Positions 4,567 to 26,540 of a stretch of DNA of 40,151 nucleotides are shown piece after piece. Source of the DNA: Perkinsus olseni (lineage: Eukaryota). The DNA is taken from positions 1 through 40,151 of the forward strand of contig JABANN010000314.1 of NCBI GenBank assembly GCA_013115125.1, in the 5' to 3' direction. Positions within the stretch are counted from its first letter, which is position 1, and each line of letters begins with the position of its first letter. A program made the translations under genes and the position numbers. Below the pieces are notes generated by a model. That model saw only the letters and a list, made by a program, of their open reading frames with translations, ran no database searches and was not told the origin of the DNA.

Positions 4567-7164
4567 TTATTCCGTGTTGCCCATCAAAATGGCTAAGTTA
4601 GCCGCCGCTTTCGCCAAGAACTACAAAGAAGCGGTGACAAGGGGAAAAACCGCAGTATGACAATTACCTCCAAGGATGGGTTGGCTGAAACAACGCAGTC
4701 CAGGATTCGGCAGCCAGTCTCAAAGCTGCCGCCCCAAATGGCTGCTATTACGGCACATCTGCAGAGGACAATTATACAGCGGAGTGTCCAGTGGACGCAG
4801 AGAGAGACCAGTAGCTATGCGTGAGGGGCGGTCTTGAGCCGAAGATTCGTCCGAAGACACTTCACAGGAGCGATAACCTTTGACCGACCCGAGAGCCACC
4901 CTACCTTATGACGCAGTCTACCACTTCGTAACTTTGCCTTAGTTGTTCGCCTGGAAGAGCACTATGAAGCATAACCGTGTGAGCGTAGATCCTGATGAGA
5001 TGAAATCGACATCAACAGTCGGCGGGAAGGGACTCCCACCTAAAGGCCGCATCAAACCTGCCGGCAGACTCATAAGCTTCTGCAAGAATTATCATTTCGG
5101 ACTCGGAGTGAGCAGCTGAACATAAACATGTCGAGACTGGGAATCGAACCCGCGACCTCCTCACGAGAAAGCTCCTCAAGCATTCTGTTAGCAACTATCA
5201 TCTTCTGGGTGAACCGCAGCGCCCATTCATTGCCGCCTTGGAACTGAAGGCAGTGGTGCGCGACAGTTTTCGAGATGAAAAGCGACTAGCCGAGGGATCG
5301 AACCCGCGACCTTCTCCATAACAACGCCAACTCTTACCGATTTCGCTGGAGAAGTGCTGCTAACGTCAGCGCTCAGGCGTCGTGGCACGCCTTGGAGCCG
5401 CTCCATCACCTCCCCTGTTCGAACAATTCCCTTCTCCCCAACGGGAGTCGTAGCCGTCCTGGATGGTGTCTCTCCCTTCACGGATGTCGCGAAACGAAGG
5501 TCCATCTCATGCTGAGAAAAATAAAAAAATCCGACGATCCGCGAAGCGTTGCAAGCTCACCTCGGCCGAAAGAACAATCTCAGGTTCCCAGCCCAGGGGT
5601 ACCGTGTAGATGACCAAAGAGGGATCAAAAGGCGAGGTTATACTGAAGAACGCCAATTCCCAGACGAGGACTAGCCGCCATTCATCTCACCAGCGCTCTG
5701 AATTAGCAGCCAAGTGCGTAGCGATGATGTCCTCGTCGGGAGGAGGCAGCATGGAGGCCCCCTTTTCCGCCCAAGCCACGACGATATTGCATAGCACCTA
5801 CCGCAGTTACAGTGATAAAAATACTTAACTTCACAACTACTTTCTCAGTGATGATCGCCTTCCGCGCCGAGCTTTGGCTCTCGAACTGCACGTAGGCCAC
5901 CTGACTGCCGGTGTCGGGGTCAGCTTCGCAAAGTGCCTGACGCACGGGAAGAATGACCGGGCCGGAGGGTCCGGTGGTCTTACCAAAAATTCAATTTTCT
6001 CCGGATTGGGAAACAACCGGTCCAGTAGCTTTACATTCAGCGGCCTAAACAGAGGACGATTGGTCGCGGGTTCGAATCCCGGCAAGGACATTTCTACCCT
6101 TCTTCCAATCTTCCCACAGAGGCTATCGTAGTAGCCGAATGCCACTGAGGGGGTTCGCCAAGCTCCATCCCTCCGTCTACCATTCCACTGGAGGGCACCA
6201 GAGTGACCTTCAGCATACGCGGCGCCACTTGAGCCGGCCGATTAAGATCGTACTCCACCCTCTCATACAACCTGAACGTCATCTTCCGCTACTACCACAA
6301 CTTTCCCGAATCACCTCCGGAAGCCTTGATAGCGGTCCTTCGGGACCAAATGCTTGTACTGGGCCATGAAGCTCAAAGCCTCCTCCTTCTTACTAAACTT
6401 GTTAAAAAGGCCAGCGACATCCATGATCGCACTGACCGCCTGAGCGACCGGCCCGTGAAACGAATTCCTAGGAGTACGAGCCCTACCCTAATGCCACGCT
6501 GAATACATTGCGTGTGCCAGTACAGGGCCCTTCTGTAGTCACGGGCATTCTCCGCTCGCTTCGCCATCGTATACGGTGACGAATCCTGAGTCCAACCATG
6601 GCTAACCTCGGATGCTACTATCACCGCCATGATTCTTACCCGCGGTAAAGTAATGAAGTTACTCTTGCGATAGAGCAATACGTCCGACTCCTCATCAGAA
6701 CTCTCTCGCCCAGGGCCCGAGCCTCCAGGGTCACCCAGCGGCCGGAGCAACGCAGCCGAAGCAGCACCAGCCAGGCCGCTTCCTCCGGCTGCAATACCCG
6801 ACGAGGAGTAGTGCTCGGAATGGTTCAAAATACTCAAGGGAACACCATGGCCAGCAAAGGGCGTGGTGGCAGTGTCCTCTCCGTAGCTCTGCGCAGTCGG
6901 GAGCGCACGGGAGGGACGAAGTAATGAGTCCGGTTCGTTACCGAACATACCGCAAGGCGGACAGCAAGAAAGACAACAAATCTTAAGACTGCGGGACAAC
7001 CAGTGCCATTCCCAATACCCAAACGCAGCACGAGCAGCGACTTTGAAATATCCCTTCACGCGCTGCCCAATAGTTTCGACGATCCACACGCCGTCCACGC
7101 CCCGGTCATTATTACGCGGACCCGAGTATCGCAGCAGCGACGTTGTGCGGGTCCTGGGCGCCAT
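4567..7164 (-). CDS. Multi-exon hypothetical protein with TPR-like helices and an RRM-like segment
   Basis: The first exon is ORF 6373..7164. Later exons give AKRAENARDYRRALYWHTQCIQRG (TPR-like), VAYVQFESQSSARKAI (RNP1-like), SEMIILAEAYESAGRFDAAFR (TPR-like) and a last exon FLAKAAANLAILMGNTE* (stop 4567-4569). In-phase GT-AG introns verified at 5116-5164, 5244-5337 and 6045-6097. Confidence 0.6.
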
Positions 7165-7490
7165 TGGAGTCCGAACCGTAGGCAGCGTCCATCATACCGT
7201 TGTGAGAGGCGCTGTCAGCATCGGTCGGCACGCCTGAGAACCAGGACAATGTATGACCGTTAAATATCCCTCCACTGACTATTATTGTAATAGCATCTTC
7301 ACGAGTTGTGCATTCAGGCGACCATTCATCAGCATCAAAACCCGGGAAGACTCAAGTGGCGTCAACGACGGCGGAGCTTCACACTCAAAGCCAGCGAGCG
7401 AGAATTGTTACGGCGTTTACCGACTGCAGGACGTTCACTTAGAAAGGGCACACATGCCATAATTCTCGGTTGCGACCGTGTTGCGGCTAG

Positions 7491-25495: not shown

Positions 25496-25543
<48 letters not shown>

Positions 25544-26540
25544 TATTCAAGCGCCCCCGGAAGTTTGCTATGTGTGCAGGGCGCCATAGCATAGTGGACC
25601 GTTATTCGAGGCGCGCACGACGAGTAGTACTTGTAGTAGTGATACTAGGGCTGAATCCGGAATAATCTATCTCCCTCTACGTCCACTACAGACAAAGGTT
25701 CTTCAGTAGTTTTAACGAAGGCAGCAGCATGCATTGGTACTCTGACTTCTTCTCACCTAGCGCACGACGTCCTCTCTGAATCAGAATGCCGCCTTTTCCA
25801 GGCTTCCACGCACCTACCGAGCCTTCTGTATGTTTTTGCCGCAAATAGTTGGCTACCGTTGTGTTCGCGATCATCATCATCATCGATTGACGTATATTTC
25901 GTTCGCAGGTTCATGACGGAAGTGCAATACTTCGCAGGAGATCGAGAGAAGGTTCCCTTGAGAGAGCGCATAGAAAAAGCACGGGACTTGGCGGCGTCCA
26001 AGCACCAGGTGTGTTGCACCGTCTGGCGGTTGTGGTATTTTTTTGAGTAGGCCAAGCTGGAAAAGCTTCGGAGGCATTATCCTCTGGAGGAGGACGAGTG
26101 ACAACATGTGTGCCGTTGGTGACGTTTCTGGCAGGGATTTGCCTTGGGTTCGGTTCAGTGGGCTGTTAAAACGCCTTTGCCAGGGATCGAACTTGGCAAG
26201 AATGGCAGTCGGGTAGTCCACCCACCCATCCACCCGGAGAGCCATTGGACCCTTTGTGAGCCGCAAAAATAGTTCGCTGAGATTTACCATTACTACACGT
26301 CGAGGATGCCAGCTTGACGCAGTTGATCGAGGGAAAGTACACCTTATTACTTGCAGGACTTTTCTGAGGAAAGTTAGGGCAGGCGACGGGATCCTCGATG
26401 ACTCAGTTTTGCAAGGGTTATCGTTGCGGTTAATAAAAAGTTCCCGTGAGTATGCAAGTACTCCGTGAATGTCGTTCTTCGACTTCAGCGGCCTTCGCCC
26501 GAGCGTCTGGAGGCTCCTGCGACGGGTATAGCCCATGGTA
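25158..26540 (+). CDS. Hypothetical multi-exon protein; 3' end uncertain
   Basis: ATG 25158 followed by GT-AG-bounded exons giving RLFTSWWHKWVDGSNPEDWTRKATANFLRSQK, DPFILEQADLENWRRW, FMTEVQYFAGDREKVPLRERIEKARDLAASKHQ, AKLEKLRRHYPLEEDE. No family recognised. Confidence 0.5.
25496..25542 (+). repeat. (GTA)n / (AGT)n microsatellite, ~15 units, intronic
   Basis: Perfect trinucleotide run seen directly in the sequence. Confidence 0.95.

Follow-up and report, generated by a model that had tools for sequence, protein, structure and literature searches.

A short repeat that appears to derive from the 3' part of a tRNA-like sequence lies in four small introns of the shellfish parasite Perkinsus olseni, an alveolate, within a 40,151-base stretch of DNA (contig JABANN010000314.1 of assembly GCA_013115125.1, positions 1-40,151; hereafter the window). 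The repeat resembles the variable loop and T arm of a tRNA, the part that includes the RNA polymerase III B box, as these occur in the heads of tRNA-derived short interspersed elements (SINEs). All four host introns belong to minus-strand genes and are spliced; two copies of the unit lie sense and two antisense to the transcripts. The original prediction, made from the sequence alone, had described a larger set that included a degenerate full tRNA; the observation is real but narrower than first stated, namely a short intron-resident tRNA-derived repeat. The most likely origin of the copies is that short tRNA-derived DNA was inserted into transcribed regions, and the reading that we tentatively prefer is that insertion of the unit created or completely remade three of the four introns, in the manner of an introner.

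The first intron, C1 (5116-5164, minus strand), is 49 nt long and carries the unit in sense, matched at 5128-5161 by a profile of SINE heads and at 5117-5163 by a profile of the family itself. C2 (5244-5337, minus strand), of 94 nt, also carries a sense unit, at 5282-5315 (family profile 5271-5323). In the 53-nt C3 (6045-6097, minus strand) the unit is antisense to the transcript, on the plus strand at 6052-6092/6097, and the 58-nt C4 (8636-8693, minus strand), which interrupts a SEC13-like WD40 gene, holds a diverged antisense unit on the plus strand at about 8648-8693. The 18-mer GGTCGCGGGTTCGANNCC is present in exact form at 5140-5157(-), 5294-5311(-), and 6062-6079(+), and with two mismatches at 8659-8676(+). 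With up to three mismatches allowed, these four matches compare with 0.28 expected, and the B-box consensus GGTTCGANNCC was matched exactly three times, in C1-C3 and nowhere outside introns, compared with 0.27 expected; none of 100 shuffles reached either count. C4 departs from the B-box consensus at one position. Predicted introns contained all four copies, an excess over both the whole window (p = 6.7e-4) and non-exonic DNA alone (p = 7.9e-3). The prediction that the motif recurs in four tiny introns was borne out by these counts, which far exceed the shuffles, and by the location of every copy in a GT..AG intron; the comparisons proposed with it, motif against shuffled sequence and introns against other DNA, both gave an excess when made within the window. 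An origin by chance, or by an artefact such as assembly error or contamination, has only the small copy number in its favor and appears practically negligible against these shuffles, the splice joints found in RNA contigs of four runs, and the six DNA runs that contain all words sampled from 4700-9700.

The copies are unevenly placed. All four fall within 3.6 kb, three of them in one gene, and a permutation test indicated clustering along the window (p = 0.012). Such an arrangement fits local copying, in which a single tRNA-derived piece would have been captured once and then spread among neighbouring introns, through gene conversion or through templated insertion during repair, without forming a genome-wide family; the shortness of the pieces, their occurrence in both orientations, and their differing flanks are consistent with it. 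However, C3 and C4 belong to different genes, and a possible fifth copy lies 17 kb off. Local copying is an improbable explanation in our judgment. Transposition of introns by reverse splicing was ruled out as the source of the whole set, because the units occur in both orientations relative to transcripts that are all on the minus strand.

All four segments are spliceosomal introns with GT..AG borders, and the coordinates originally given for them were correct. When RNA contigs of four runs were placed on positions 4500-24499, contigs of all four runs joined 5115 to 5165, skipping 49 nt, and 5243 to 5338, skipping 94 nt, in each case with CT..AC ends on the plus strand, that is, GT..AG on the minus strand. 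The 15 of 60 joints listed did not include those of C3 or C4, and splicing of these two rests instead on the reading frame, the gene model, and protein mapping. Removal of 6045-6097 together with nine RNA-confirmed introns leaves an open frame of 365 codons, and a gene model with splice matrices derived from other introns predicted both C3 and C4. Moreover, a P. olseni protein (P0001; "GTPase-activating protein S13, partial [Perkinsus olseni]" at NCBI) maps colinearly from 9211 down to 4570, with most exons 88-100% identical, and leaves out all four segments, exact to within a split codon; a host-gene exon is 95% identical to it. This match, together with the spliced-leader ends of RNA contigs described below, assigns the window to P. 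olseni or a very close relative. Splicing, for which a check by RNA had been proposed, was thus confirmed directly by RNA for C1 and C2 and is supported indirectly for C3 and C4. The host gene of C1-C3 contains seven further small introns without the motif, seen in the RNA joints of all four runs. The gene that hosts C4 encodes a WD40 protein, the first repeat of which aligns with the N-terminus of SEC13 chains. A Pfam search of eight unspliced open reading frame stretches detected only the WD40 repeats of this SEC13-like gene; it returned nothing for the host gene of C1-C3 and no match for the gene that had been labelled PGM. Across 4570-9211(-), P0001 (823 aa, "partial") fuses the SEC13-like WD40 gene with the downstream host gene of C1-C3, and our gene model splits the same span into several genes, which could reflect either a fusion in the database entry or a fragmented model.

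The four introns form a group of their own among the introns of the window. The gene model predicted 82 introns with a total of 6,461 nt, or 16.1% of the window; both figures are approximate, as the model does not correctly reproduce at least the 10013-10149 intron implied by RNA. It recovered 14 of 14 RNA-confirmed introns, the same 14 on which its splice matrices had been trained. Predicted lengths were tightly grouped, with a median of 49.5 nt and 57 of the 82 introns at or below 60 nt, and four of the 82 carry the unit. An all-versus-all blastn comparison of the 82 gave E values of 4.6e-5 for 5116/5244, 1.8e-4 for 5116/6045, and 2e-3 for 5244/6045, and all other pairs were at or above 0.009. 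When 70 introns of up to 130 nt were compared by Smith-Waterman alignment with their splice-site ends trimmed, the six pairs among C1-C4 ranked within the top 8 of 2415. The four are a real similarity cluster, confined to introns of unrelated genes, and the sole one among the predicted introns. Unusual RNA folding was not found in them: by folding energy per nucleotide, the four introns occupied ranks 22, 26, 32, and 55 of 64. Within the gene that contains C1-C3, the introns 5643-5690(-) and 5244-5337(-) have a 9-mer and an 8-mer in common, in swapped order, a likeness that is not significant by blastn (E = 0.68).

Read in the tRNA sense, the unit spans about 35-47 nt. A few anticodon-stem-like bases lead into the variable loop, GGTC; the T arm follows as GCGGG, TTCGAnn, and CCnnG, the final base of which cannot pair; and an acceptor-like stretch, which ends in GACA in three of the four copies, leads to a T-rich trailer. 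The variable loop and T arm may be of the kind found in tRNA-Ile. The pattern GGTCGCGGGTTCGAWYCCYNG, designed to exclude T stems with normal pairing, was used for a scan of metagenome contigs. At least 106 stretches matched, and all 106 listed were inspected. Nearly all of them close a tRNA-like head, with D-arm-like and anticodon-arm-like parts upstream, and continue into bodies common to many contigs. The exact 21-mer of C1 occurred 13 times among the 106 matches listed, that of C3 11 times, and that of C2 not at all; no Perkinsus-like locus was present among them. At least two large SINE-like families can be told apart in this collection (loci L001-L106), with an identical variable-loop/T-arm 21-mer and different bodies, each body being found in more than 25 of the 106 contigs. 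Since the metagenome 21-mers head SINE-like repeat families, they point to a tRNA or SINE head as the origin of the block, and they carry no information on mobility in Perkinsus. On this comparison, derivation of the motif from such a head appears well supported, and the earlier identification of the motif as a tRNA T arm and B box of the SINE-head kind was upheld by repeat heads with the same 21-mers. In P. marinus, five types of tRNA gene are present in more than 500 copies (PMC3706591), which indicates that tRNA-like DNA is abundant in the genus.

The likeness extends over only part of such a head. A SINE-head profile, built from 105 of the tRNA-like repeat heads in the metagenome contigs, aligned with 34-41 nt of C1-C3, matches that follow by construction because their own 21-mer was the bait; the alignments always began at profile position 41-47 of 83. 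Against C4 the same profile gave E = 0.075. The unit corresponds to no more than the 3' third of a tRNA-like head: it contains the B box and no A box or D-arm part, and therefore C1-C4 are not SINE copies in the strict sense. A body and a 3' tail, by which a SINE would also be recognized, are likewise absent, and the units stop 10-15 nt past the T arm, in introns of 49-58 nt. As had been stated in the original prediction, no intact tRNA gene is present: over the whole window, ARAGORN returned none and Rfam gave no tRNA match at E <= 10. Rfam searches of two sub-regions gave no match to the tRNA model and only a 13-nt T-loop match to tmRNA, and ARAGORN at relaxed settings made 6 and 27 calls, no better than the 0-6 and 14-31 calls made in 20 shuffles. 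The unit itself is not a tRNA gene or pseudogene by these tools, its cloverleaf being recognized by neither ARAGORN nor the Rfam tRNA model.

Retention of the B box raises the alternative that a DNA motif was selected, with the B boxes kept in introns as putative extra-TFIIIC (ETC) sites or as sites for other proteins. Consistent with this, the core is identical in three copies with differing flanks, the function of a B box is independent of orientation, and every exact B box in the window is intronic. However, the invariant block GGTCGCGGGTTCGA is displaced to the 5' side of the B box, the B-box region is variable in its 3' half, and the core is changed in C4, a pattern of conservation that may be taken to argue, weakly, against a TFIIIC site. 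The published ETC sites known to us are, moreover, intergenic. We consider selection of this kind very improbable.

The relation between the unit and the splice sites carries the preferred reading, that insertion made or remade introns. In C1, the 5' splice site GTGAGGA adjoins the unit, and at the other end the T-rich trailer leads into the 3' splice site. The introns C3 and C4, which interrupt different genes, both start with GTAGAAAT, which is the complement of the unit's trailer and serves as the 5' splice site; the two introns align from their first nucleotide to nucleotide 36, with the splice site contiguous with the unit. When both strands of the window were counted, the octamer was found three times, and every occurrence begins a predicted intron. 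The third occurrence begins a predicted 43-nt intron at 15756-15798(+), which is possibly a decayed relative of C3 and C4 and is supported by no profile. The family profile covers 47 of 49 nt in C1, 46 of 53 in C3, and 46 of 58 in C4, compared with 53 of 94 in C2; these spans are self hits, and the coverage of 79-96% in the first three leans on a four-sequence alignment. In C2, 41-60 nt of unrelated intron sequence surround the unit, and the total length is about that of a modal-size intron plus the unit.

We propose that pieces of a tRNA-derived repeat entered transcribed DNA as short insertions, either as mobile DNA or as filler DNA, and that the inserted pieces may have been able to persist because they are spliced out. 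In C2, the unit would have been inserted inside a longer, older intron. In C1, C3, and C4, where the unit and trailer appear to make up nearly all of the intron, the insertion would have made or wholly remade it: in the antisense copies C3 and C4 the complement of the trailer would have supplied the 5' splice site, and in the sense copy C1 the T-rich trailer would have led into an AG used as the 3' splice site. Because three introns appear to consist almost wholly of unit and trailer, and because the 5' splice site of the antisense copies lies within the unit, we prefer creation or remaking, although supply of the splice sites by the unit, and with it intron creation, is plausible and unproven. 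The shortest RNA-confirmed intron is 43 nt, and therefore the 2-12 nt left outside the unit in C1, C3, and C4 could not themselves be an intron.

The main alternative is colonisation only, in which the unit entered pre-existing introns, no new intron arose, and C1, C3, and C4 later shrank by deletion, under pressure towards an optimum of about 48 nt. The composition of C2 speaks for it, as do the tight clustering of intron lengths, the lack of target-site duplications, and the structure of the host gene, which has introns every 60-175 nt among which those with the motif show no sign of being extra. On the other hand, colonisation requires near-complete loss of the old intron on three separate occasions while the 18-mer stayed identical, and C3 and C4 have a common 5' splice-site octamer contiguous with the unit. 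We regard it as possible and rather unlikely.

Several further points weigh against the preferred reading, that insertion made or remade C1, C3, and C4. The copies number only four, perhaps five, and all come from one window; C1, C2, and C3 share only 14-19 nt in pairwise blast, far less than the members of classic introner families. The longest word shared near both junctions of an intron is 4-5 nt, with no direct repeat above 5 nt in the flanks, and target-site duplications, terminal inverted repeats, and border repeats were not found at any of the four. C2 resembles an insertion into an older intron, and the others could have arisen in the same way with subsequent deletions. The clustering of the copies fits local copying as well as it fits a dispersed family. 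Finally, copies without the motif would go unseen, and retention of the B box is in part an effect of ascertainment. Proteins of relatives (59-191 residues), searched for read-through intron sequence, gave none that scored, and among longer proteins the only match was the near-identical P0001.

In its strongest form, the proposal would be that Perkinsus has a family of miniature introners originating in the 3' portion of a tRNA or SINE head, in which insertion of a unit of about 40-45 nt in either orientation yields an intron of the modal length of about 50 nt. Depending on its orientation, such a unit would contribute either a 5' splice site, through the complement of its T-rich trailer, or a pyrimidine tract together with a 3' splice site. 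We hold this extension to be doubtful; if true, it would be the smallest introner so far and the first of tRNA origin.

Two further copies had been proposed, with different outcomes. The "degenerate full tRNA" placed in a minus-strand intron at 10724-10822 received no support. The intron itself is only predicted, the gene model giving 10701-10822 with an uncertain 3' end (10701 or 10724). Rfam found no tRNA match there at E <= 10 even when the search was confined to 141 bases, ARAGORN made no call at relaxed thresholds, the SINE-head profile did not match, and the family profile gave E = 11. Its alignment scores to the family, 12-19, fall at the upper end of the background, which reached a maximum of 18. 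With negative profiles and scores at background level, this segment was not accepted as a member of the family. The weaker copy proposed at 26158-26200 fared better in part. The family profile matched at 26167-26192(-) with E = 0.012 (SINE-head profile, E = 0.58), and this segment lacks the GGTCGCGG block but contains a T-loop, an acceptor-like part, and a T-rich trailer; the latter two are similar to their counterparts in C3, and the trailer runs straight into an AG. The family likeness is thus marginal, and the segment is not callable as an intron, for it sits in a stop-free frame of 238 codons, in a region without a gene model and beyond the 4500-24499 covered by RNA contigs. It is a possible diverged fifth copy. 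At about 25440-25600, a trinucleotide repeat is translated in several frames as homopolymer runs (L, S, V, T).

Several other features of the window were noted. A C/D-box snoRNA-like sequence at 3686-3760(+), with both box pairs visible, matched the Rfam family SNORD53_SNORD92 at 27.7 bits (E = 0.14), below the gathering score of 46, and a simple repeat lies at 9809-9847. Loose ends of RNA contigs at 11679, 23470, and 23986 carry Perkinsus spliced-leader sequence, being the reverse complement of part of the 22-nt P. marinus spliced leader as printed in PMC9399869; these positions are likely trans-splice acceptor sites, the first two of minus-strand genes and the third of a plus-strand gene. 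At 12036-15017(+), the gene model gives a single 921-aa product made of two tandem halves, each of about 460 aa and similar to one another as judged by eye; the region probably represents two tandem paralogous genes. A 178-nt joint at 21537-21716 was present in all four runs; it has GA..TT ends and only 20 nt on its shorter side, and is probably an alignment artefact or a variant and not a canonical intron.

The origin of new spliceosomal introns remains largely open, and the well-documented examples are families of introners whose behavior resembles that of DNA transposons. If the insertion reading is true, a tRNA-derived unit of about 45 nt, spliced in either orientation, would indicate that very small RNA polymerase III-related sequences can seed introns, and P. 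olseni would offer a tractable case in a culturable parasite with invasive introns in sister lineages. If the copies are only passengers in old introns, the result is a modest note on the repeat content of Perkinsus introns. In the literature we found nothing on Perkinsus intron families or SINEs, though the species tables of introner surveys could list Perkinsus, and nothing on tRNA- or SINE-derived introners; a 2024 review of transposon-derived introns contains no occurrence of "SINE" (PMC11282704).

The unit can be compared with five known kinds of sequence. With the heads of tRNA-derived SINEs it has in common the 21-mer of variable loop, T arm, and B box, down to the last base, which does not pair; SINEs, however, are 100-400 nt long, whereas the Perkinsus pieces are 35-47 nt, begin at about profile position 41, and have no A box, body, tail, or target-site duplication. 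Like ETC sites, the unit is an isolated B box without an A box, but its conservation is not centred on that box. The Dada transposons of P. marinus (Kojima and Jurka 2013, PMC3706591) are also tRNA-associated mobile DNA, in the same genus, in which tRNA genes have been amplified to hundreds of copies; they differ in being 4.7-11 kb long, in encoding a transposase, and in inserting at the tRNA A box (TAGCTC), and nothing of this sort is present at C1-C4. In Daphnia, double-strand-break repair with filler DNA has likewise turned short foreign DNA into new introns, but those gains have short flanking repeats, which were not found at C1-C4 (PMC3488318). The introner elements of Micromonas, Aureococcus, and Amoebophrya resemble the Perkinsus unit in being repeats that lie in the introns of unrelated genes and are removed by the normal spliceosome; they extend nearly to the splice sites (PMC7789003, PMC3488318, PMC11282704), as the unit may also do in C1, C3, and C4. 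They differ in their hundreds to thousands of copies alike over the full length, often bordered by inverted and direct repeats, whereas the Perkinsus unit is known from four copies in one window, with 14-36 nt shared, no border repeats, and tRNA-like content. Amoebophrya, a dinoflagellate relative whose invasive introner elements carry inverted and direct repeats, belongs to the sister lineage of Perkinsus (PMC7789003).

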